A DNA stretch of 63,272 nt, counting the filler. It is 12 parts of 12 records of this genome, joined end to end, with 100 filler letters (N's around TTAATTAATTAA, not from the genome) between each part and the next. Parts side by side here need not be neighbours in the genome. Positions count along the whole stretch, not along the records: positions 48,202 to 50,234 come from SRR11831586_1722; 11 more parts are not named here. The stretch is one strand, 5' to 3'. Numbering within the stretch: the first letter of the stretch is position 1; every line of letters starts with the position of its first letter. The notes beneath the pieces are model-generated. The model was not told the DNA's origin. It saw nothing but the letters and a program-made list of their open reading frames with translations, and searched no databases. Of this stretch, positions 6,884 to 63,272 are shown one piece after another. The position numbers were made by a program, and so were the translations under genes.

Positions 6884-6983
6884 NNNNNNNNNNNNNNNNN
6901 NNNNNNNNNNNNNNNNNNNNNNNNNNNTTAATTAATTAANNNNNNNNNNNNNNNNNNNNNNNNNNNNNNNNNNNNNNNNNNNN
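6884..6983. other. Artificial contig spacer
   Basis: 44 N + TTAATTAATTAA + 44 N. Confidence 0.99.
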
Positions 6984-9227: not shown

Positions 9228-9327
9228 NNNNNNNNNNNNNNNNNNNNNNNNNNNNNNNNNNNNNNNNNNNNTTAATTAATTAANNNNNNNNNNNNNNNNN
9301 NNNNNNNNNNNNNNNNNNNNNNNNNNN
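9228..9327. other. Artificial contig spacer
   Basis: 44 N + TTAATTAATTAA + 44 N. Confidence 0.99.
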
Positions 9328-35071: not shown

Positions 35072-35171
35072 NNNNNNNNNNNNNNNNNNNNNNNNNNNNN
35101 NNNNNNNNNNNNNNNTTAATTAATTAANNNNNNNNNNNNNNNNNNNNNNNNNNNNNNNNNNNNNNNNNNNN
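35072..35171. other. Artificial contig spacer
   Basis: 44 N + TTAATTAATTAA + 44 N. Confidence 0.99.
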
Positions 35172-39572: not shown

Positions 39573-39672
39573 NNNNNNNNNNNNNNNNNNNNNNNNNNNN
39601 NNNNNNNNNNNNNNNNTTAATTAATTAANNNNNNNNNNNNNNNNNNNNNNNNNNNNNNNNNNNNNNNNNNNN
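39573..39672. other. Artificial contig spacer
   Basis: 44 N + TTAATTAATTAA + 44 N. Confidence 0.99.
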
Positions 39673-41709: not shown

Positions 41710-41809
41710 NNNNNNNNNNNNNNNNNNNNNNNNNNNNNNNNNNNNNNNNNNNNTTAATTAATTAANNNNNNNNNNNNNNNNNNNNNNNNNNNNNNNNNNN
41801 NNNNNNNNN
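41710..41809. other. Artificial contig spacer
   Basis: 44 N + TTAATTAATTAA + 44 N. Confidence 0.99.
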
Positions 41810-45392: not shown

Positions 45393-45492
45393 NNNNNNNN
45401 NNNNNNNNNNNNNNNNNNNNNNNNNNNNNNNNNNNNTTAATTAATTAANNNNNNNNNNNNNNNNNNNNNNNNNNNNNNNNNNNNNNNNNNNN
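45393..45492. other. Artificial contig spacer
   Basis: 44 N + TTAATTAATTAA + 44 N. Confidence 0.99.
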
Positions 45493-48101: not shown

Positions 48102-48201
48102 NNNNNNNNNNNNNNNNNNNNNNNNNNNNNNNNNNNNNNNNNNNNTTAATTAATTAANNNNNNNNNNNNNNNNNNNNNNNNNNNNNNNNNNNNNNNNNNN
48201 N
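48102..48201. other. Artificial contig spacer
   Basis: 44 N + TTAATTAATTAA + 44 N. Confidence 0.99.
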
Positions 48202-48202
48202 G

Positions 48203-48934
48203 GTTGCGTACCGTGCGCAGGCGCTGCCCCCGGGGTACCAGTTCGTGGGGTCGGCTGGGGTCAGTCCCGAGCAGGACGAGGTTCGGACGGTCGGCTCCTC
48301 GGACCAGCTGCTGCGGCGGCGGGAGGAGGGTGAGTCGCAGGATGACGGGAGCACGCCGCCAAGGATCGAAGTGGAGGACTACTCGTACATCCAGGTGGTG
48401 CCCGAGCCCGAGTCTGACAGTGGGGACTCGCCCCCGCAGCCCGTGTGGACCCCGCAGCAGCCCCACGACGCTGCGTACGGCCGCTCCCCGCCCTCCGTCT
48501 CCGCCAGCGACACGCCCCCGATGCGCGCCTCCTCGTCTACGGAGCCGCTGACCATCGTGCGGATGCCGGCGGAGACACAACGCACGGACAACACATCTCC
48601 TCCCGGGACCCCGCCTATCCATGAGGAGGACCAGCCGCCGCTGATGATGTCGCCCGTGTCGACGGTGATTGTGGACCTGTCTGCGGACTCCGTGGTCAGC
48701 TCGCCGTCCACTGTGGTGTCGCAGCACATGCAGTATGCGGGACCCTCGACACCCTCGCAGCTCACACTCACACCGGCCACGGACATCACCACCACCGCCA
48801 CTATGATCACACCGAGAACGGTCACGTTTCCCCCTACGCCTGAGCAGTGGGCCATGTCGCCCCCGGCCGGTGCGTTTCGGACGGTGGCTGTGAATTTGGA
48901 TCAGCGGCTGCGAGAATCGCTGGAGCACTTGTAG
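48203..48934 (+). CDS. C-terminal part of an unknown Pro/Ser/Thr-rich, probably disordered protein (5' end missing)
   Basis: Frame open from contig edge (VAYRAQALPPGYQFVGSAG...) to TAG at 48932-48934; many SP/TP dipeptides; strong G/C third-position bias. Confidence 0.6.
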   Translation, partial: VAYRAQALPPGYQFVGSAGVSPEQDEVRTVGSSDQLLRRREEGESQDDGSTPPRIEVEDYSYIQVVPEPESDSGDSPPQPVWTPQQPHDAAYGRSPPSVSASDTPPMRASSSTEPLTIVRMPAETQRTDNTSPPGTPPIHEEDQPPLMMSPVSTVIVDLSADSVVSSPSTVVSQHMQYAGPSTPSQLTLTPATDITTTATMITPRTVTFPPTPEQWAMSPPAGAFRTVAVNLDQRLRESLEHL

Positions 48935-49590
48935 TGAACCTCGCCAGCCACTACGCCGCCACGTGGCCAGAATGTGCCGTTGAATCTGAATCTGAGAATG
49001 TGACGATGTAACAAAGGGGGACAGGTCGCAATGTGGTGGAATAGGGATAGTGTGTATTGGGGGTGCGAACCCGCTGCAACGCCGCGTGATTCGTGGTGGG
49101 AAGGGTTTGCACAGAGTGCAGTTCATAAGCTTCACATATTTTTGATACGTAAATCTGTAAGTAATTCGGAGAGAGTGTGTGTAACTGGGCGTTCTTTAGT
49201 TGGTTATTATTGATATCGTAAATAATATACTCGATGGGCATACGTGCTGACAAACACAGTTCGCCGCTGCAAAAAAACGATCGGTCCCACGCAAGTTGAC
49301 AGATGTATGTCATGGCAGGATCAACGGGGCAACAGGGCCGACGCGCGCGCACGGGAACCAGCCATCCGAACGACCGCGTACACAAGGTATGAATGTCAAC
49401 ACGGGACCGCTCACACCAGCACCGACTCCCAGACACCGGCACAATTAGACACTTGAGTCTGACCACGGATATACGGAGGCAATTGATGTGAATGCGCATC
49501 GCATCCATAGGATCGGCTTGGCCACAGAATCGCGATACCATACGTGCAACCTGCTTCATCGACCGTGACGGTGCCACTCCCCATATTGAT

Positions 49591-50188
49591 TCATTGTGTG
49601 GATGCCGCACGACGCACCAGCACGCGATACGTGAGTGGGGACCGCACCGTACGCTCTACTTCATCATACTGCGTCTCATCGACCGAAGGAAAGAAGACAT
49701 CACCCTCGTGTGGCACTATCATAACAAGCACGCCCGAGAGGCATCGTGTTAGTGAAACAGCTGAGAGGCAGCATATATAAAGATATCAATTTTGCTATAC
49801 GATGTGCAGTACACCAGCGAACCCCCACCACAAGCACACACCATCAATCTCGGTCAGGTACAGATGCGTGGCCAGCGGAAGACTGTCGGCGTACACCTTG
49901 GTCCCGCCGCAGATGAAAGGCATCGGGTCCGACTCCCACGCAGCCTCCAGCGCAGCAGCCAGTGTCGGCACCACCTGCACACAGCACAATCAGAGCGCAC
50001 AGCAACAACAGGACGGTTGTGCGGAAACAGTGATTCAATAGGATGAGGACCAAGAGCATGCACCGCACGGGAAGAGTACGAAGGAGTGGTACCTCGATGC
50101 CATCGGCCTTGTACGCCACATCGGAAGTGATAATGATGTTCCGGCGTCCTTTCAAAGGTTTTCCAACGGATTCGTACGTACGACGTCC
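49591..50188 (-). CDS. Intron-containing dihydrofolate reductase, partial: exons 50093-50188, 49842-49974, 49591-49715; N-terminal exon(s) beyond contig end
   Basis: Spliced: GRRTYESVGKPLKGRRNIIITSDVAYKADGIE|VVPTLAAALEAAWESDPMPFICGGTKVYADSLPLATHLYLTEID|VPHEGDVFFPSVDETQYDEVERTVRSPLTYRVLVRRAASTQ*; DHFR motifs GRxT..S, PL.GR.N, GG..VY, YLT.I, EGD..FP. Confidence 0.88.
49716..49841 (-). other. Spliceosomal intron (126 nt, phase 1) in the DHFR gene
   Basis: GATG|GTGTGTG...CACTAAC (49748-49754)...TTATGATAG|TGCCA; removal joins YLTEID to VPHEGDVFFP. Confidence 0.85.
49975..50092 (-). other. Spliceosomal intron (118 nt, phase 0) in the DHFR gene
   Basis: GAG|GTACCAC...TCTGATTGTGCTGTGTGCAG|GTG; removal restores the DHFR frame. 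Confidence 0.82.
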
Positions 50189-50234
50189 CTGCTGAAGAGT
50201 GAGATTACGCCTCCAAGAATCGAGCTAGATCGCA

Positions 50235-50334
50235 NNNNNNNNNNNNNNNNNNNNNNNNNNNNNNNNNNNNNNNNNNNNTTAATTAATTAANNNNNNNNNN
50301 NNNNNNNNNNNNNNNNNNNNNNNNNNNNNNNNNN
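50235..50334. other. Artificial contig spacer
   Basis: 44 N + TTAATTAATTAA + 44 N. Confidence 0.99.
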
Positions 50335-50335
50335 G

Positions 50336-50552
50336 TTGTTAACGACATTGACTGAGCCTCAGGATCGGTCGCTGGCGTATTAATAATCCACAGCTGGCTG
50401 CCGATGTGAAAACGGCGTGGTTAAAAGAGGATCCATCATTACTCTTATTTGTCGAACAACCCGATCTTTCGCTGTTACGTGATTTAGTGAAAACCGGGGC
50501 AACGCGGAAAATTCGCAGTGAAGCGCGTCACCGGCTTGAGGAAAAACAATGA
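50336..50552 (+). CDS. ykiA: YkiA C-terminal fragment, apparent extra base near 50377
   Basis: LLTTLTEPQDRSLA, then shifted frame INNPQLAADVKTAWLKEDP...RHRLEEKQ*; lies next to rdgC as in K-12. Confidence 0.7.
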
Positions 50553-50632
50553 CACAACGTCCATGGAGCAAGTTACAGCGTAAAACGCATAATATTGCTG
50601 CGCTAAAAATTATTGCTCGCCGTAGCGAATAA
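50549..50632 (+). CDS. 27-aa small ORF coupled to ykiA (probably the annotated small protein YkiD)
   Basis: ATGA overlap; MTQRPWSKLQRKTHNIAALKIIARRSE*; GAGG upstream. Confidence 0.5.
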   Translation: MTQRPWSKLQRKTHNIAALKIIARRSE

Positions 50633-50653
50633 TTATATGCCTGGTGTGGCTTC

Positions 50654-50691
50654 GTACGCCGGATAAGACGCGGCAGGCGTCGCATCCGGCA
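50654..50691. repeat. REP element
   Basis: GTACGCCGGATAAGACGCGGCAGGCGTCGCATCCGGCA. Confidence 0.85.
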
Positions 50692-50709
50692 TTAAAGGAA
50701 AATCAGCAA

Positions 50710-51621
50710 TTAACGTTGTGCTTCGCCACCTAATCCTTCAATCAGGTTTTGAATTAACGCTGCCAGTTCACCAGTCATCAGGATGAAATCGGCATCAAAA
50801 CGCTGGGCGAAATCTTCACGGTCGATATCTTCGTTTTGATCGCGCAGCTCGTCGCAGAACTTCAGACGCTTGAGCGAACCATCGTCGCACATCACAAACT
50901 GAATGCGCTGCTGCCAGTCGAGCGCCAGTTTAGTCACCACTTTTCCGGCTTCAATGTGATTGGTGATCTCTTCGCTGGTCAGATCTTGTTTCTTCGCGCG
51001 GATCACGCCGCCATCTTCCAGCAACGATTTCAGCTCGGCTTCATCAAGCAGCTGGAAGCCCTGTGCCGCACTACCGGAGCGAACCCATTCGGTCAGCGTC
51101 AGTTCAATCGGGTTTTCCATGCTCAATGGTACAACCGGTAACGACCCCAGGCTTTTACGCAGTAATGCCAGCGTATCTTCCGCTTTTTTGGCACTGGCGC
51201 AGTCCACCATAATCAAACCGTTAACCGTGTCGATCCACATCATTGTCTGGCTAAAACGGCTGAAAGCACGCGGCAGCAGAGAGTGCAGCACTTCGTCTTT
51301 CAGCGAATCTTTTTCGGTTTTCTTCAGCTTACGCGCCTGTTCCGCTTCCAGTTTGGCGATTTTCGCTTCCAGCGCCTGTTTAATCACCGGAGACGGGAGG
51401 ATTTTTTCTTCTTTGCGCGCGCAGATAACAATTTGACCATTGGCAACGTGCGTTAACGCATCGCTGTGCGATCCCATCGGAGGAACCCAGCCCATCTTCG
51501 CCATGTCCTGGCTGCCGCATGGGGTAAATGCCATCGAGGCTAGCTGTTTTTCCATCTCTTCTGCACGCAGCGAAATCTCGCGGCTAAGACGGTAAACCAT
51601 TAAATTTTTGAACCACAGCAT
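50710..51621 (-). CDS. rdgC: Recombination-associated protein RdgC
   Basis: [12 protein letters not shown] start; 303 aa. Confidence 0.95.
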
Positions 51622-51745
51622 GATAATTTCCACGGCCTTGTCGTTAAATTTAGCGGGCATGATAACGAATTGTCGGCGGCCTTGCATTGCCAATCCGGTT
51701 GTCCGTCTCTACGCTATTGATATTGAAAAAAATAAGGAGAGTACC

Positions 51746-52653
51746 GTGCGTATAGGTATCGATTTAGGCGGCACCAAAACTGAAGTGATTGCACTGGGCG
51801 ATGCAGGGGAGCAGTTGTACCGCCATCGTCTGCCCACGCCGCGTGATGATTACCGGCAGACTATTGAAACGATCGCCACGTTGGTTGATATGGCGGAGCA
51901 GGCGACGGGGCAGCGCGGAACGGTAGGTATGGGCATTCCTGGCTCAATTTCGCCTTACACCGGTGTGGTGAAGAATGCCAATTCAACCTGGCTCAACGGT
52001 CAGCCATTCGATAAAGACTTAAGCGCGAGGTTGCAGCGGGAAGTGCGGCTGGCAAATGACGCTAACTGTCTGGCGGTTTCAGAAGCAGTAGATGGCGCGG
52101 CAGCGGGAGCGCAGACGGTATTTGCCGTGATTATCGGCACGGGATGCGGCGCGGGCGTGGCATTCAATGGGCGGGCGCATATCGGCGGCAATGGCACGGC
52201 AGGTGAGTGGGGACACAATCCGCTACCGTGGATGGACGAAGACGAACTGCGTTATCGCGAGGAAGTCCCTTGTTATTGCGGTAAACAAGGTTGTATTGAA
52301 ACCTTTATTTCGGGCACGGGATTCGCGATGGATTATCGTCGTTTGAGCGGACATGCGCTGAAAGGCAGTGAAATTATCCGCCTGGTTGAAGAAAGCGATC
52401 CGGTAGCGGAACTGGCATTGCGTCGCTACGAGCTGCGGCTGGCAAAATCGCTGGCACATGTCGTGAATATTCTCGATCCGGATGTGATTGTCCTGGGGGG
52501 CGGATGAGCAATGTAGACCGTTTATATCAAACGGTTGGGCAGTTGATTAAACAATTTGTCTTCGGCGGCGAATGTGAAACGCCGGTGCGTAAGGCGAAGC
52601 ACGGTGATTCCAGCGGCGTACGCGGCGCTGCGTGGTTATGGCCACAAGAGTAA
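51746..52653 (+). CDS. mak: ROK-family manno(fructo)kinase, apparent -1 frameshift at 52502-52503
   Basis: GTG start after [31 protein letters not shown]-terminus MSNVDRLY...GAAWLWPQE* in another frame; span 908 nt = 3n-1. Confidence 0.9.
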
Positions 52654-52661
52654 AAAAACGT

Positions 52662-52761
52662 NNNNNNNNNNNNNNNNNNNNNNNNNNNNNNNNNNNNNNN
52701 NNNNNTTAATTAATTAANNNNNNNNNNNNNNNNNNNNNNNNNNNNNNNNNNNNNNNNNNNN
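52662..52761. other. Artificial contig spacer
   Basis: 44 N + TTAATTAATTAA + 44 N. Confidence 0.99.
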
Positions 52762-52790
52762 CGACGCTGTCGCGTCTTATCAGGCCTACA
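52762..52790. repeat. Partial REP at contig start
   Basis: CGACGCTGTCGCGTCTTATCAGGCCTACA. Confidence 0.85.
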
Positions 52791-52823
52791 AACCGTTACC
52801 GACTCGCATCGGGCAATTGTGGG

Positions 52824-54782
<1,959 letters not shown>

Positions 54783-54863
54783 GCTTTTGTTCTCCTTGTA
54801 GGATGTTAATAATATGTGGCATAAGCGTTAAATGTAGGGGTATTGGCAGTTTTGTTTAGTATT

Positions 54864-54879
54864 TGGGCGACAGATCACG
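54864..54879 (-). promoter_or_regulatory. CRP site of the acs promoter
   Basis: Minus strand CGTGA-tctgtc-GCCCA vs TGTGA-N6-TCACA; known CRP activation of acs. Confidence 0.55.
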
Positions 54880-54999
54880 CAAAAGTAGAATTGTGCAAAT
54901 AAACGGCAGGGTAATTTTTGAAGGTCAGCAACAAAAGTTGATTAATTCTTTGAGGAACATGCAGTTATGCATGCTGTTGAAAAAGAGGAAGATACTGAC

Positions 55000-55015
55000 T
55001 AACTCTAAAGTGGTA
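55000..55015 (+). promoter_or_regulatory. NarL/NarP 7-2-7 site of the nrfA promoter
   Basis: TAACTCT-aa-AGTGGTA upstream of the FNR box. Confidence 0.65.
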
Positions 55016-55033
55016 TTTTACATGCACTTACAA

Positions 55034-55047
55034 TTGATTAAAGACAA
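55034..55047 (+). promoter_or_regulatory. FNR box of the nrfA promoter
   Basis: TTGAT-taaa-GACAA vs TTGAT-N4-ATCAA. Confidence 0.75.
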
Positions 55048-55132
55048 CATTCACAGTGTGGTTATTTGTTACACATAGGGGCGAGCAATGTCATGACAGT
55101 GTAGGTGCGGTTACTGTCGTGAAAAACAATAA

Positions 55133-56611
<1,479 letters not shown>

Positions 56612-56655
56612 CCCCGTTCCGCCTCGCAAGGGGCGGAAAACACAATGGAGTGAAT

Positions 56656-57222
56656 ATGAGCGTATTACGTTCGTTATTAACTGCCGGGGTGCTGGCGTCG
56701 GGCCTGTTGTGGAGCCTGAACGGAATTACCGCTACCCCTGCGGCGCAGGCATCTGATGATCGCTACGAAGTTACCCAGCAGCGTAACCCGGATGCCGCCT
56801 GTCTGGACTGTCATAAACCAGATACCGAAGGTATGCATGGAAAACATGCTTCCGTTATCAACCCGAATAACAAACTGCCGGTCACCTGCACCAACTGTCA
56901 CGGCCAGCCATCACCGCAACACCGCGAAGGGGTGAAAGATGTGATGCGCTTTAACGAGCCGATGTACAAGGTTGGAGAGCAGAACAGCGTCTGTATGTCC
57001 TGTCATCTGCCGGAACAGTTGCAAAAAGCGTTCTGGCCGCACGATGTCCACGTAACCAAAGTGGCGTGCGCCAGCTGCCATTCCCTGCATCCACAGCAAG
57101 ATACGATGCAGACGTTAAGTGACAAAGGACGGATTAAGATTTGCGTCGATTGCCACAGCGATCAGCGCACCAATCCGAACTTTAACCCGGCGTCTGTTCC
57201 GTTGCTTAAGGAGCAGCCATGA
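56656..57222 (+). CDS. nrfB: Pentaheme cytochrome c NrfB
   Basis: Five CxxCH motifs; signal peptide. Confidence 0.97.
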
Positions 57223-57890
57223 CCTGGTCTCGTCGCCAGTTTCTCACCGGCGTCGGCGTGCTGGCAGCCGTCAGCGGCACCGCAGGGCGCGTGGTGGCGA
57301 AAACGTTGAATATCAATGGGGTGCGTTACGGCATGGTGCATGACGAGTCGTTATGCATCGGCTGTACCGCCTGTATGGATGCTTGTCGGGAAGTGAACAA
57401 GGTGCCGGAAGGCGTCTCGCGCCTGACGATTATTCGTAGCGAGCCGCAGGGCGAATTTCCTGATGTGAAATATCGCTTCTTCCGTAAGTCTTGCCAGCAC
57501 TGCGATCATGCGCCGTGCGTTGACGTCTGCCCGACCGGTGCGTCTTTTCGCGATGCTGCCAGTGGGATTGTCGATGTTAATCCGGATCTCTGCGTCGGTT
57601 GTCAGTACTGCATCGCCGCCTGTCCGTACCGCGTGCGCTTTATCCATCCGGTCACGAAGACGGCGGACAAATGCGATTTCTGCCGTAAGACCAATTTGCA
57701 GGCCGGTAAGTTGCCCGCGTGCGTTGAAGCTTGCCCGACCAAGGCGCTGACGTTTGGCAATCTGGACGATCCCAACAGTGAGATTTCGCAACTGCTGCGC
57801 CAGAAGCCCACTTACCGCTACAAGCTGGCGCTGGGAACCAAACCGAAGCTGTACCGCGTACCGTTTAAATACGGGGAGGTGAGCCAATGA
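57219..57890 (+). CDS. nrfC: 4Fe-4S ferredoxin subunit NrfC
   Basis: Tat signal SRRQFL; four Cys clusters. Confidence 0.97.
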
Positions 57891-58843
57891 CGCAGACTTC
57901 CGCATTTCATTTTGAATCGCTGGTGTGGGACTGGCCGATTGCCATCTACCTGTTTTTGATTGGTATTTCTGCTGGTCTGGTGACGCTGGCCGTGCTGTTA
58001 CGTCGCTTCTACCCGCAGGCGGGCGGTGCAGACAGTACGTTGCTGCGCACCACGCTGATTGTCGGGCCGGGCGCGGTGATCCTCGGTCTGTTGATCCTCG
58101 TCTTCCACCTGACAAGACCGTGGACCTTCTGGAAGCTGATGTTCCACTACAGTTTTACCTCGGTGATGTCGATGGGGGTGATGCTGTTTCAGCTCTACAT
58201 GGTGGTGCTGGTGCTGTGGCTGGCGAAAATCTTTGAACATGATTTGCTTGCCCTGCAACAACGCTGGTTGCCGAAGCTGGGGATCGTGCAAAAGGTTCTG
58301 AGCCTGCTGACGCCCGTTCATCGCGGACTGGAAACATTGATGCTGGTGCTGGCGGTGTTGTTGGGGGCTTATACCGGCTTTCTGCTGTCGGCGCTGAAAT
58401 CGTATCCGTTCCTCAATAACCCGATCCTGCCGGTGCTGTTCCTCTTCTCCGGCATCTCGTCCGGTGCGGCGGTGGCGCTGATCGCCATGGCGATACGCCA
58501 ACGCAGTAACCCGCATTCCACGGAAGCGCAGTTTGTACACCGTATGGAAATCCCTGTGGTATGGGGTGAAATCTTCCTGCTGGTGGCGTTTTTTGTCGGT
58601 CTGGCGCTGGGCGATGACGGTAAAGTTCGTGCGCTGGTGGCGGCATTAGGTGGCGGTTTCTGGACGTGGTGGTTCTGGCTTGGTGTCGCCGGGCTGGGGC
58701 TGATTGTGCCAATGCTGCTCAAACCGTGGGTCAATCGCAGTTCCGGCATTCCTGCCGTGCTGGCGGCGTGTGGGGCCAGTCTGGTCGGCGTGTTGATGCT
58801 GCGCTTTTTCATTCTCTACGCCGGACAGTTGACGGTGGCGTAA
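57887..58843 (+). CDS. nrfD: Quinol-oxidising membrane subunit NrfD
   Basis: WDWPIAIYLFL NrfD/PsrC family; 318 aa. Confidence 0.96.
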   Translation: MTQTSAFHFESLVWDWPIAIYLFLIGISAGLVTLAVLLRRFYPQAGGADSTLLRTTLIVGPGAVILGLLILVFHLTRPWTFWKLMFHYSFTSVMSMGVMLFQLYMVVLVLWLAKIFEHDLLALQQRWLPKLGIVQKVLSLLTPVHRGLETLMLVLAVLLGAYTGFLLSALKSYPFLNNPILPVLFLFSGISSGAAVALIAMAIRQRSNPHSTEAQFVHRMEIPVVWGEIFLLVAFFVGLALGDDGKVRALVAALGGGFWTWWFWLGVAGLGLIVPMLLKPWVNRSSGIPAVLAACGASLVGVLMLRFFILYAGQLTVA

Positions 58844-58862
58844 GCCAGAAAAGAGGTGGTTT

Positions 58863-60581
58863 CTGGACGTATTCCTTCCTGAAGTCGGTTTTCTGGCGTT
58901 GTTGTTAAGTCTCGGGGTCAACGTGTTGACCCCGTTGACGGCCTTCGCGGGAGTGCGGTTGCGCTGGCCTGCCATGATGCGACTCACTTGCATCGGCATT
59001 CTGGCGCAGTTCGCGCTCCTGCTGCTCGCCTTTGGCGTACTGACGTATTGTTTTCTCATCAGCGATTTCTCGGTCATTTATGTCGCGCAACATAGCTATA
59101 GCCTGCTGTCGTGGGAACTCAAGCTGGCAGCGGTGTGGGGCGGCCATGAAGGTTCGCTGCTGCTTTGGGTGCTGCTGCTTTCCGCCTGGAGCGCGCTGTT
59201 TGCCTGGCATTATCGGCAGCAAACCGATCCGCTATTTCCGCTGACGTTAGCCGTTTTATCTCTCATGCTCGCCGCACTGCTACTGTTTGTGGTGCTGTGG
59301 TCCGATCCCTTCGTGCGGATATTTCCACCAGCAATCGAAGGCCGCGATCTCAATCCGATGCTGCAACATCCCGGTCTTATCTTTCATCCACCGCTGCTTT
59401 ACCTTGGCTATGGCGGTTTGATGGTAGCGGCGAGCGTGGCGCTGGCGAGTCTACTGCGCGGCGAGTTTGATGGTGCCTGCGCCCGAATTTGCTGGCGCTG
59501 GGCGTTACCTGGCTGGAGTGCATTAACGGCGGGGATCATCCTCGGTTCCTGGTGGGCCTACTGCGAACTCGGCTGGGGCGGCTGGTGGTTCTGGGATCCG
59601 GTGGAAAACGCCTCTTTATTACCCTGGCTTTCTGCCACTGCGCTGCTGCACAGTTTGTCCCTGACACGCCAGCGGGGGATTTTTTGCCACTGGTCGCTGT
59701 TGCTGGCGATAGTTACTCTGATGCTGTCGCTGCTGGGCACCTTAATTGTCCGTTCTGGCATTCTGGTTTCGGTTCATGCGTTCGCGCTGGATAACGTCCG
59801 CGCCGTGCCGTTGTTCAGCCTGTTTGCACTGATTAGCCTTGCGTCTCTGGCTCTGTATGGCTGGCGAGCGCGGGACGGTGGCCCGGCGGTGCATTTTTCG
59901 GGGTTATCGCGGGAAATGTTAATCCTCGCTACGCTGTTGCTGTTTTGCGCAGTGCTACTGATCGTGCTGGTGGGAACGCTTTATCCGATGATTTACGGCC
60001 TGCTGGGCTGGGGACGCCTCTCCGTTGGCGCGCCGTATTTTAACCGCGCGACGTTACCGTTTGGTCTGTTGATGCTGGTGGTGATTGTGCTGGCGACGTT
60101 TGTCTCTGGCAAACGCGTGCAGCTTCCGGCGCTGGTAGCTCATGCGGGCGTGCTGTTATTTGCCGCTGGGGTCGTGGTCTCCAGCGTCAGCCGTCAGGAG
60201 ATCAGCCTGAATTTACAGCCGGGTCAGCAGGTGACGCTGGCAGGATACACCTTCCGTTTTGAGTGCCTCGATCTACAAGCCAAAGGCAATTACACCAGCG
60301 AAAAAGCGATAGTGGCACTGTTTGACCATCAGCAACGCATTGGTGAACTGACGCCGGAGCGGCGTTTTTATGAAGCACGCCGTCAACAAATGATGGAACC
60401 GTCAATTCGCTGGAACGGCATCCATGACTGGTATGCGGTCATGGGGGAGAAAACTGGGCCGGATCGTTACGCTTTTCGTTTGTATGTACAAAGCGGTGTG
60501 CGCTGGATCTGGGGGGGAGGATTGTTGATGATTGCGGGCGCATTGTTAAGCGGATGGCGGGGGAAGAAGCGCGATGAATAA
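58863..60581 (+). CDS. nrfE: Heme lyase subunit NrfE (CcmF paralog); start uncertain (CTG 58863, TTG 58899 or GTG 58923)
   Basis: WGGHEGSLL, WGGWWFWDPVEN, SVHAF CcmF motifs. Confidence 0.93.
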   Translation: MDVFLPEVGFLALLLSLGVNVLTPLTAFAGVRLRWPAMMRLTCIGILAQFALLLLAFGVLTYCFLISDFSVIYVAQHSYSLLSWELKLAAVWGGHEGSLLLWVLLLSAWSALFAWHYRQQTDPLFPLTLAVLSLMLAALLLFVVLWSDPFVRIFPPAIEGRDLNPMLQHPGLIFHPPLLYLGYGGLMVAASVALASLLRGEFDGACARICWRWALPGWSALTAGIILGSWWAYCELGWGGWWFWDPVENASLLPWLSATALLHSLSLTRQRGIFCHWSLLLAIVTLMLSLLGTLIVRSGILVSVHAFALDNVRAVPLFSLFALISLASLALYGWRARDGGPAVHFSGLSREMLILATLLLFCAVLLIVLVGTLYPMIYGLLGWGRLSVGAPYFNRATLPFGLLMLVVIVLATFVSGKRVQLPALVAHAGVLLFAAGVVVSSVSRQEISLNLQPGQQVTLAGYTFRFECLDLQAKGNYTSEKAIVALFDHQQRIGELTPERRFYEARRQQMMEPSIRWNGIHDWYAVMGEKTGPDRYAFRLYVQSGVRWIWGGGLLMIAGALLSGWRGKKRDE

Positions 60582-60957
60582 AGGGCTTCTCACGCTACTG
60601 CTGTTATTTACCTGTTTTGCGCACGCTCAGGTCGTAGACACCTGGCAATTCGCCAATCCGCAACAACAGCAACAGGCGTTAAATATTGCCAGCCAGTTAC
60701 GTTGTCCGCAGTGCCAGAATCAAAACTTACTGGAATCCAACGCGCCGGTGGCTGTCAGTATGCGCCATCAGGTTTACAGCATGGTGGCGGAGGGGAAGAA
60801 CGAAGTCGAAATCATTGGCTGGATGACCGAACGCTACGGAGATTTTGTTCGCTATAACCCACCGTTAACGGGTCAGACGCTGGTGTTATGGGCGCTGCCA
60901 GTGGTGTTGTTACTGCTGATGGCACTGATCCTCTGGCGAGTGAGGGCGAAGCGATGA
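60574..60957 (+). CDS. nrfF: Heme lyase subunit NrfF (CcmH-like)
   Basis: LRCPQCQNQ motif. Confidence 0.96.
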
Positions 60958-61550
60958 AACAGCCCAAAATACCGGTGAAAATGCTGACAACACTCACGAT
61001 ATTGATGGTATTTCTCTGTGTCGGCAGTTATCTGTTAAGCCCAAAATGGCAGGCGGTACGTGCGGAGTATCAGCGTCAGCGCGATCCGCTACATCAGTTT
61101 GCCAGCCAGCAAACCCCGGAAGCGCAGCTTCAGGCATTGCAGGATAAAATCCGCGCTAATCCACAAAACAGCGAACAGTGGGCGTTACTGGGCGAGTACT
61201 ATCTGTGGCAAAACGATTACAGCAATTCGTTGCTGGCGTACCGTCAGGCGTTGCAACTACGTGGTGAGAACGCTGAACTGTATGCGGCGCTGGCGACGGT
61301 GCTTTATTACCAGGCCAGCCAGCATATGACCGCCCAGACTCGCGCAATGATCGACAAAGCCCTCGCGCTGGACAGTAATGAAATCACCGCCCTGATGCTG
61401 CTGGCTTCCGATGCGTTTATGCAGGCGAACTACGCGCAAGCCATCGAACTATGGCAAAAAGTGATGGATCTCAACTCACCGCGAGTTAACCGAACACAGC
61501 TGGTTGAGTCGATTAATATGGCGAAATTGTTGCAGCGGAGATTGGATTAA
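60954..61550 (+). CDS. nrfG: Heme lyase TPR subunit NrfG
   Basis: ATGA overlap with nrfF; TPR repeats; 198 aa. Confidence 0.95.
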
Positions 61551-61891
61551 TCATCTGGTGATGAAGATTATGTCATTGAGCTGCATAAAAAATAATCGAA
61601 TGAACATATGCCAAAAATAATCACTAATCAGTATTATTGCAGATTAAACAAATAAAAATCTTTCCATAACAAATGGTTATTCATTAATCCTGCCATAAAC
61701 TCGCGTTATTATGCATTAATGCAGCGAAAAGCTCTGTTGTTAAAGGGTTGCGCAACATACCGCGCAAATGATACTGATCATAAGCGTTAAAAAAATCTAC
61801 AAACCAACGCAACACAATTCATGCCCTGGCAGTATGTCACGTTCTCGCGTTTCTGAACGGGGAACGGCGCTCCATTGAGGAAGTCATTCAT

Positions 61892-63205
61892 ATGAAAAAT
61901 ATAAAATTCAGCCTGGCCTGGCAGATTCTGTTTGCTATGGTGCTGGGCATTCTCCTGGGAAGCTACCTGCACTACCATAGCGACAGCCGCGACTGGCTGG
62001 TCGTCAATTTGCTCTCTCCGGCGGGTGATATCTTCATCCATCTGATTAAAATGATTGTTGTGCCGATTGTGATCTCCACGCTGGTGGTGGGTATCGCGGG
62101 TGTTGGTGATGCCAAACAGCTCGGGCGTATTGGCGCGAAAACCATTATCTACTTCGAGGTGATCACCACCGTCGCCATCATTTTGGGGATCACTCTGGCG
62201 AACGTCTTCCAGCCCGGTGCCGGGGTGGATATGTCGCAGTTGGCGACCGTCGATATCTCGAAATATCAGAGCACTACGGAAGCGGTACAAAGCAGTTCCC
62301 ACGGCATTATGGGCACGATTTTGTCGCTGGTGCCGACGAACATTGTGGCGTCGATGGCGAAAGGCGAAATGCTGCCGATCATCTTTTTCTCGGTGCTGTT
62401 TGGTCTGGGGCTTTCTTCCCTGCCCGCGACGCATCGTGAACCGCTGGTGACCGTGTTCCGCTCCATCTCTGAAACCATGTTTAAAGTGACTCACATGGTG
62501 ATGCGTTATGCACCGGTGGGTGTGTTTGCGCTGATTGCGGTGACGGTGGCTAACTTTGGTTTCTCGTCTCTGTGGCCACTGGCGAAACTGGTGCTGCTGG
62601 TGCATTTCGCCATTCTGTTCTTCGCGCTGGTAGTGCTGGGAATTGTGGCGCGCCTGTGCGGGTTAAGCGTCTGGATCCTGATTCGTATTCTGAAAGATGA
62701 GCTGATTCTGGCGTACTCCACTGCCAGCTCTGAAAGCGTGCTGCCGCGAATTATTGAGAAGATGGAAGCCTACGGAGCACCGGTGTCGATCACCAGTTTC
62801 GTGGTGCCGACCGGTTACTCTTTTAACCTTGATGGTTCGACGCTGTATCAAAGTATTGCCGCTATCTTCATCGCGCAGTTGTATGGCATTGACCTGTCCA
62901 TCTGGCAGGAAATCATTCTGGTGCTGACGCTGATGGTGACCTCGAAAGGGATTGCTGGCGTGCCTGGCGTGTCGTTTGTGGTGTTGCTGGCAACGCTGGG
63001 TAGCGTAGGTATTCCGCTGGAAGGTCTGGCGTTTATTGCTGGTGTTGACCGTATCCTCGACATGGCGCGTACTGCGCTGAACGTGGTGGGTAATGCGCTG
63101 GCGGTGCTGGTGATTGCCAAGTGGGAACACAAATTTGACCGTAAGAAAGCGCTGGCTTATGAGCGTGAAGTGCTGGGCAAATTTGATAAAACTGCGGATC
63201 AATAA
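61892..63205 (+). CDS. gltP: Proton/glutamate-aspartate symporter
   Basis: DAACS motifs STASSES, SFNLDG, DMARTALNV; 437 aa. Confidence 0.97.
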   Translation: MKNIKFSLAWQILFAMVLGILLGSYLHYHSDSRDWLVVNLLSPAGDIFIHLIKMIVVPIVISTLVVGIAGVGDAKQLGRIGAKTIIYFEVITTVAIILGITLANVFQPGAGVDMSQLATVDISKYQSTTEAVQSSSHGIMGTILSLVPTNIVASMAKGEMLPIIFFSVLFGLGLSSLPATHREPLVTVFRSISETMFKVTHMVMRYAPVGVFALIAVTVANFGFSSLWPLAKLVLLVHFAILFFALVVLGIVARLCGLSVWILIRILKDELILAYSTASSESVLPRIIEKMEAYGAPVSITSFVVPTGYSFNLDGSTLYQSIAAIFIAQLYGIDLSIWQEIILVLTLMVTSKGIAGVPGVSFVVLLATLGSVGIPLEGLAFIAGVDRILDMARTALNVVGNALAVLVIAKWEHKFDRKKALAYEREVLGKFDKTADQ

Positions 63206-63244
63206 TTGAAGATTGCCGGGGATATCCACCCGGCAATGTGTGAA

Positions 63245-63272
63245 TGCCTGATGCGACGCTTGCCGCGTCTTA
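63245..63272. repeat. Partial REP at window end
   Basis: ATGCCTGATGCGACGCTTGCCGCGTCTTA. Confidence 0.8.

Follow-up and report, generated by a model that had tools for sequence, protein, structure and literature searches.

The dihydrofolate reductases (DHFRs) of animals and fungi are longer overall and have an extended loop behind the ..ES[IV] motif, and in plants and many protists the enzyme is fused to thymidylate synthase (TS). These canonical eukaryotic DHFRs and DHFR-TS proteins belong to the family PF00186, and introns are common in eukaryotic genes. A DHFR-family gene is listed, in a figure legend of bioRxiv 10.1101/487215, among the bacterium-derived genes acquired by horizontal transfer in anaerobic gut fungi (Neocallimastigomycota). 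The use of the DHFR-TS fusion as a deep phylogenetic marker, and the doubts raised about it, are treated in a section of PMC3351787, and a passage of PMC9746703 reports that Paratrimastix encodes two DHFRs. A full-text literature search returned no description of an intron-split family of bacterial-type DHFRs, although this is not proof of absence. Here we describe a candidate for such a family, a DHFR gene on the minus strand at positions 49591–50188 of a 63,272-base stretch of DNA (the window, meaning the whole stretch analyzed), which consists of 12 contigs joined end to end. The gene lies on the one contig that is foreign to the rest of the window. In our judgment this contig is probably a fragment of a eukaryotic nuclear genome, and its DHFR probably a gene of bacterial descent that acquired introns during a long residence in a eukaryotic lineage.

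Three DHFR segments lie on one strand, collinear and in the order of the family, separated by two gaps with GT-AG borders (Table 1). Removing the gaps at these borders restores both the reading frame and the spacing of the family: the spliced frame comprises 354 nt (117 codons plus the stop) in a single frame, and the exons contain neither stops nor frameshifts. In the alignment, the junction at intron 1 (...DGIE|VVPTLAAAL) has the spacing of the intronless relatives, and the junction at intron 2 (TEID-V-PHEGD) has the length found in the related proteins P0001 (TEIDTPHDGD) and P0010. Counted from G43 to the end, the spliced product has 117 residues, exactly as many as the 159-residue enterobacterial FolA. 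Intron 2 also contains a branch-point-like CACTAAC 32 nt before its AG, and in exon C lie both the motif EGDVFFP and the enzyme's last strand, ...TYRVLVRRAASTQ. Both GT-AG pairs are thus presumably spliced in vivo. The 46 nt that precede exon A contain an in-frame stop 12 codons back, and they would encode NLTLQQ, without the ...VIMG conserved in the relatives; together with the acceptor at 50189, this makes a third, upstream intron a sound prediction. No N-terminal DHFR segment, such as would supply the exon or exons for the first ~42 residues, was found anywhere else in the window. An earlier note on this DNA, made from its letters, had counted at least three introns: two are complete, and the third is predicted from the acceptor and the upstream sequence. 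The two motifs that it had read, ESVGKPLKGR and EGDVFFP, both occur in the spliced frame. It had also placed a TGA directly after the last strand; the in-frame TGA does end the frame, but five codons (AASTQ) intervene.

Table 1. Features of the DHFR gene, the foreign contig, and the joined window (positions along the window)
Feature	Position	Strand	Length	Remarks
Putative upstream intron, 3' end	50234–50189	-	46 nt	Ends CTCTTCAGCAG; pyrimidine-rich CTCACTCTTCAGCAG acceptor; cut by contig end
Exon A	50188–50093	-	32 codons	Phase 0 at both ends; GRRTYESVGKPLKGRRNIIITSDVAYKADGIE
Predicted intron 1	50092–49975	-	118 nt	GTACCA...GTGCAG; phase 0
Exon B	49974–49842	-	133 nt	44 codons plus first base of the next
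Predicted intron 2	49841–49716	-	126 nt	GTGTGT...GATAG; phase 1
Exon C, coding part	49715–49594	-		Two bases completing codon 77, then 40 codons
Stop TGA	49593–49591	-		Five codons (AASTQ) after VLVRR
Foreign contig	48202–50234		2033 bp	58% GC; sole one of the 12 contigs without an E. coli match
Convergent open frame	48202–48934	+	243 codons	C-terminal part of an S/T/P-rich protein; runs off contig end
Linker	6884–6983		100 nt	44 N + TTAATTAATTAA + 44 N, artificial (same for all linkers)
Linker	9228–9327		100 nt	
Linker	20442–20541		100 nt	
Linker	24578–24677		100 nt	
Linker	35072–35171		100 nt	
Linker	39573–39672		100 nt	
Linker	41710–41809		100 nt	
Linker	45393–45492		100 nt	
Linker	48102–48201		100 nt	Flanks the foreign contig
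Linker	50235–50334		100 nt	Flanks the foreign contig; joins it to an unrelated E. coli contig
Linker	52662–52761		100 nt	

The match of the three segments to DHFR is not due to chance. The frame of exon A matches positions 42–75 of the Pfam family PF00186 (DHFR_1) with 32.9 bits (E 6e-8; the curated cut-off of the family is 25 bits), and exon C alone matches positions 121–141 with 13.5 bits. Exon B alone has no Pfam match; it aligns to positions 86–124 of a DHFR chain in the PDB (E 5.5e-4). The best PDB match of exon A reaches 34.5 bits, and its matches lie at chain positions 43–74; those of exon C lie at positions 121–144. Besides engineered DHFR fusions, the searches of the PDB exon by exon returned DHFR chains only, the natural ones being 157–182 residues long, and no TS fusion is named among the PDB rows listed (60, 60, and 9). 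All of these matches look bacterial, and the top entries are presumably mycobacterial, staphylococcal, Bacillus, and E. coli enzymes. Residues identical to those of the 159-residue enterobacterial FolA are distributed over all three exons: exon A, which spans the stretch that binds NADPH and the substrate, holds the counterparts of G43, R44, T46, L54, and R57; exon B those of G95, G96, Y100, and T113; and exon C those of G121, D122, and F125. We take these twelve conserved positions to be cofactor, substrate, or structural sites of E. coli DHFR. Since all the binding and structural residues that fall within the contig and are open to checking are kept, the spliced product is likely to be a working DHFR, and we would expect it to be enzymatically active.

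The gene is stand-alone, with no TS fused to it on the contig. None of the eight long frames of the foreign contig matches the TS family PF00303 in Pfam, and tblastn with three bacterial TS proteins against the contig gave nothing better than E 3.7. Outside the DHFR gene the contig comprises 1.39 kb, in which there is no TS-like segment. Moreover, P0001 and P0005 (described below), which are the closest relatives, end within 2–4 residues of the point at which the TGA ends the window gene. The absence of a TS fusion, as the earlier note had claimed, is borne out by the in-frame TGA and by both searches of the 2033-bp contig, although a TS exon might conceivably lie past the point where the contig stops.

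Database searches connect the gene to bacterial-type enzymes. When exon B was searched exhaustively with phmmer in 1.84 billion cluster representatives, 31 matches reached E <= 0.001, one of which (P0003) was set aside as low-complexity. No canonical eukaryotic DHFR is among the 31, and none of them is longer than 339 residues, a length which means that none is a DHFR-TS. Among the 10 matches that were looked up one is named, a DHFR from a metagenome-assembled genome (MAG) of Deltaproteobacteria. In one of the 31, P0022 (339 residues), the DHFR domain lies behind an N-terminal region of ~190 residues that appears acetyltransferase-like by eye. Word-index protein searches gave no match, either with exon B, for which longer proteins were sought, or with the region of exon A, and the word-index and exhaustive searches together found no near-identical protein among about 15 billion.

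The 117 residues of the spliced product are 47–56% identical to the best full-length bacterial-looking proteins (51% to P0001), 44–53% identical to 11 named Myxococcota loci, 47–48% to loci of Muribaculaceae, Bacteroides, and Planctomycetota, and 38–40% to enterobacterial FolA. The last value, together with the lack of any E. coli match for the contig, rules out E. coli's own folA. Of 16 loci recovered from genomes of prokaryotes, 11 belong to Myxococcota, and the named profile matches are two Myxococcota, one Deltaproteobacteria, two Polyangiales MAGs, and one labeled Rickettsiales. The 14 loci found in the metagenome scan look bacterial: all are intronless, and 13 of them are at 54–69% GC (L017 is at 44%). 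ESM Atlas, queried with P0001, returned generic bacterial DHFR clusters only. Where the earlier note had spoken of a folA/dfr-type gene, the bacterial type is supported by both length and sequence, but a mobile dfr is not: tblastn with exon B against 72,556 plasmids found one record, the DHFR of a Methylibium megaplasmid (45.5%), and exon B against the phage collection likewise found one (44%). A scan of 2.9 million viral contigs yielded 34 pattern matches and no relative.

For the phylogenetic trees, four phyla were sampled. A DHFR was obtained from 17 of 41 Myxococcota genomes, 17 of 31 Pseudomonadota genomes, 13 of 21 Bacteroidota genomes, and 10 of 21 Planctomycetota genomes; canonical eukaryotic DHFRs, DHFR-TS, Bacillota, and Actinomycetota lay outside this sampling. 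We omitted P0002 and P0004 (exon B only), P0003 (low complexity), fragments shorter than 120 residues (P0013, P0016, P0025, and P0027), and duplicate or partial loci (L016, L040, L049–L052, L069, L070, L075, L083, and L090), and 94 of the 120 profile matches were also left out. In a quick tree (132 rows, 122 columns) the window protein pairs with the spliced P0005, with a support of 94 in the Shimodaira-Hasegawa approximate likelihood-ratio test (SH-aLRT). A branch with an SH-aLRT of 97 places it on a side of 73 rows, together with Myxococcia-type DHFRs and with none of the 20 sampled Pseudomonadota. In a more careful tree of 52 rows, the window protein, P0001, and the spliced P0005 form one clade (95/83), to which the bacterial-looking P0074 is sister (89/79).

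The loop on which the earlier note had leaned to tell bacterial from eukaryotic enzymes is less telling. The window protein does have the short form, with 5 residues, as do 110 of the 131 aligned rows. However, the long form with 8–9 residues (7 of the 131 rows) includes DHFRs from genomes of Pseudomonadota, Planctomycetota, and Bacteroidota. The short loop fits a bacterial-type enzyme, yet judged from these alignments it is no clean domain marker. The form [LI]P.K[FQ]RPL is usually regarded as eukaryote-like; we observed this 8–9-residue loop in some bacterial and unlabeled DHFRs (loci L066, L092, and L080–L082 and proteins P0010 and P0029).

Three environmental relatives appear to be broken at the same points as the window gene. 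Four of the top exhaustive matches are short proteins from environmental or run assemblies. P0005, encoded on a 10-kb contig, aligns to residues 40–76 and 77–111 of the window protein, with 16 extra in-frame residues placed exactly where intron 2 falls. P0004 is homologous over residues 31–75 only, approximately exon B: its homology begins at the border of intron 1, preceded by a T-rich head that ends ...VTVQ. P0002 starts at the start of exon B and loses the family motif after TEID. This loss of homology at exon borders, with the in-frame insert, points to read-through translation of split genes, and suggests that P0002, P0004, and P0005 share intron positions with the window gene. The environmental fragments are diverged, with 51–67% identity to the window protein (55–67% in exon B). 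We therefore suggest an older eukaryotic gene family, shared between lineages, rather than a one-off private transfer, and the environmental relatives themselves would be eukaryotic in origin. The earlier note had proposed that a eukaryote acquired the gene and that introns were gained afterward. The bacterial type of the protein and the GT-AG introns agree with this, but an event private to one organism would fit poorly with breaks that environmental fragments appear to share.

Taken together, we propose that the contig is a piece of a eukaryotic nuclear genome holding the 3' two-thirds of a gene for a stand-alone, bacterial-type DHFR of ~160 residues, a gene split by two spliceosomal-type introns at the least and probably by a third. 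The spliced product would fold as an ordinary small DHFR and reduce dihydrofolate with NADPH. Most likely the gene would have come into the eukaryotic lineage from a bacterium with a DHFR similar to the enzymes of present-day Myxococcota, and have resided there long enough to acquire introns, at positions that its diverged environmental relatives appear to share. Both the direction and the age of the transfer are deduced from these comparisons. More tentatively, unsampled eukaryotes might carry a long-resident, Myxococcota-like, stand-alone folA with conserved introns, which may even replace the canonical DHFR or DHFR-TS; this is possible, but we would not count on it.

A number of observations weigh against this proposal. 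The quick tree puts P0001 elsewhere on the 73-row side, and not with the window protein; the backbone of the careful tree is open (21 of 49 forks), and its bootstrap is not settled. The trees being bacterial and environmental only, a position among bacteria and not eukaryotes is suggested by best matches and by length. Only a subset of Myxococcota is similar: random Myxococcota loci other than L038 and L040 score 42–72 bits, and motif-selected loci score 88–104 bits. One locus of Planctomycetota (95 bits) and one of Muribaculaceae (94 bits) score close to the motif-selected Myxococcota. For this reason the donor is not established, and "Myxococcota-like" is used here as a label of similarity only. 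The introns of P0002, P0004, and P0005 are deduced from read-through translations only; moreover, when exon B is compared by itself, the intron-bearing sequences are not mutual best matches, as for the window exon P0005 stands 25th and P0004 26th of 225, with the bacterial-looking P0074 in first place. Splicing and transcription of the window gene are predictions from genomic sequence. Finally, the N-terminal third of the protein, to which the catalytic acid and the mobile loop belong, lies off the contig, which limits any prediction of activity.

Among other explanations, the one to be taken most seriously, although we consider it unlikely, is vertical inheritance, in which a compact stand-alone DHFR was kept since early eukaryotes and resembles bacterial enzymes through ancestry that it retained. 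Intron sites apparently common to diverged fragments would fit an old resident gene; the lack of a near-identical protein among about 15 billion would fit a poorly sampled lineage; and the short loop, present in most aligned rows, is merely the common state. Ancestry at the eukaryotic stem does not, however, predict 47–56% identity to one bacterial subset against 38–40% to others, nor a position inside a bacterial subset supported by an SH-aLRT of 97, and no canonical eukaryotic DHFR appeared among the 31 exhaustive matches. The same apparently shared intron sites, in fragments of 51–67% identity, make it improbable, and more so than vertical descent, that a mobile folA or dfr was captured recently and privately from a plasmid, integron, or phage and then gained introns rapidly. 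Such a capture would account for the bacterial-style size and motifs, but the best bacterial identity of about 56% is not that of a recent arrival, and exon B met only the single plasmid and phage records mentioned above and no relative among viral contigs.

We give still less credence to a decayed pseudogene, bacterial or eukaryotic, or to an assembly chimera, in which the gaps would mimic introns. In favor of this, the contig is a short orphan among contaminant-like E. coli pieces, and the 5' end of the gene is missing. Yet both gaps run from GT to AG, and their removal restores the frame and the exact spacing of the family; the key residues that can be checked are all kept, in exons without stops or frameshifts, and environmental sequences that are independent of the contig break at these points too. 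Least probable of all, in our estimation, is that the gene belongs to a large DNA virus of eukaryotes and not to a cellular genome. Large protist viruses carry genes of nucleotide metabolism, and the contig has no identifiable cellular neighbor gene; against this, the 34 pattern matches among 2.9 million viral contigs included no relative, and three closely spaced spliceosomal-type introns in so small a gene would be unusual for such viruses.

The surroundings of the gene within the window call for caution. The linker map divides the window into 12 contigs of 2.0–11.1 kb, joined by 11 identical linkers, and neighborhood across any linker is biologically meaningless. Eleven of the contigs (window positions 1–48101 and 50335–63272) match one Escherichia genome, G001, end to end with 94–100% identity, at scattered chromosomal positions and in scrambled order. 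The contig at 52762–63272, which covers acs-nrf-gltP, is 100% identical to laboratory strains of K-12, NEB 5-alpha and DH1 derivatives among them. Such matches point to contamination from a cloning host or the laboratory, or to an assembly dominated by E. coli. The window is not a single stretch of one genome, and only the 2033-bp piece is foreign; since the other 11 contigs are E. coli, the sequence outside 48202–50234 is uninformative about the host of the DHFR gene. The foreign contig as DNA had no match in the plasmid collection. Its convergent S/T/P-rich frame has no Pfam family and no usable ESM Atlas match, and its antisense frames have no Pfam family. In G001 itself, scored 44% complete, the DHFR match (contig C1, 48347–48766) contains two TGA and two TAA codons, and looks like a masked or altered copy and not like biology.

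If our proposal is true, one more bacterial metabolic gene has settled in a eukaryotic nucleus, and in this case it encodes a drug-target enzyme; a bacterial-type eukaryotic DHFR could respond to antifolates more like the bacterial than the eukaryotic enzyme. If, moreover, a long-resident folA were present in unsampled eukaryotes, it would provide a fresh and datable exception to the DHFR-TS fusion as a character, and a eukaryotic antifolate target with bacterial-type pharmacology. The value of the finding is limited by the truncation of the gene and by the precedent, already in print, of a DHFR-family gene transferred into eukaryotes. We rate the practical lesson as larger: in a stitched window dominated by E. 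coli, it is unsafe to conclude from neighboring sequence that a eukaryote carries bacterial genes.

The locus can be placed among known systems as follows. Compared with canonical eukaryotic DHFR and DHFR-TS, with which it shares the family, the window gene is without the longer loop, the extra length, and the TS domain that characterize them, and neither kind appears among the PDB rows listed or the 31 exhaustive matches. The FolA of E. coli and other enterobacteria agrees with the window protein in fold family, in length counted from G43 onward, and in key residues; it differs in its identity of 38–40% and in lying on the opposite side of the main branch of the quick tree. The DfrA enzymes of plasmid- and integron-borne trimethoprim resistance and the DHFRs of phages are small and stand-alone like the window protein, with no close match to it; a "type 5" DHFR shares the EGDVFFP motif of exon C (PDB search, 16.1 bits).

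The FolA of Myxococcota (Myxococcaceae and Archangiaceae MAGs, e.g., L019–L027) belongs to the same length class, has the short loop, and shares the motifs DPMPF..GG, PLATHLYLTE, and GD..FP with the window protein, at 44–53% identity over ~98 residues. It lies on the same side of the branch with an SH-aLRT of 97, although the careful tree does not resolve a sister relation. The Myxococcota genes are intronless and at 66–73% GC, whereas the window gene is split by introns in DNA of 58% GC and has no thyA nearby. In the Archangiaceae genome G007, whose DHFR is one of the most similar named ones, thyA (L096, contig C443, 85087–85920) ends 20 bp before folA (L040, 85941–86360). The DHFR-family gene of the Neocallimastigomycota provides a precedent for transfer into a eukaryote. 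Bacterial enzyme genes settled in eukaryotic nuclei are a known kind, to which the window gene would add one member.

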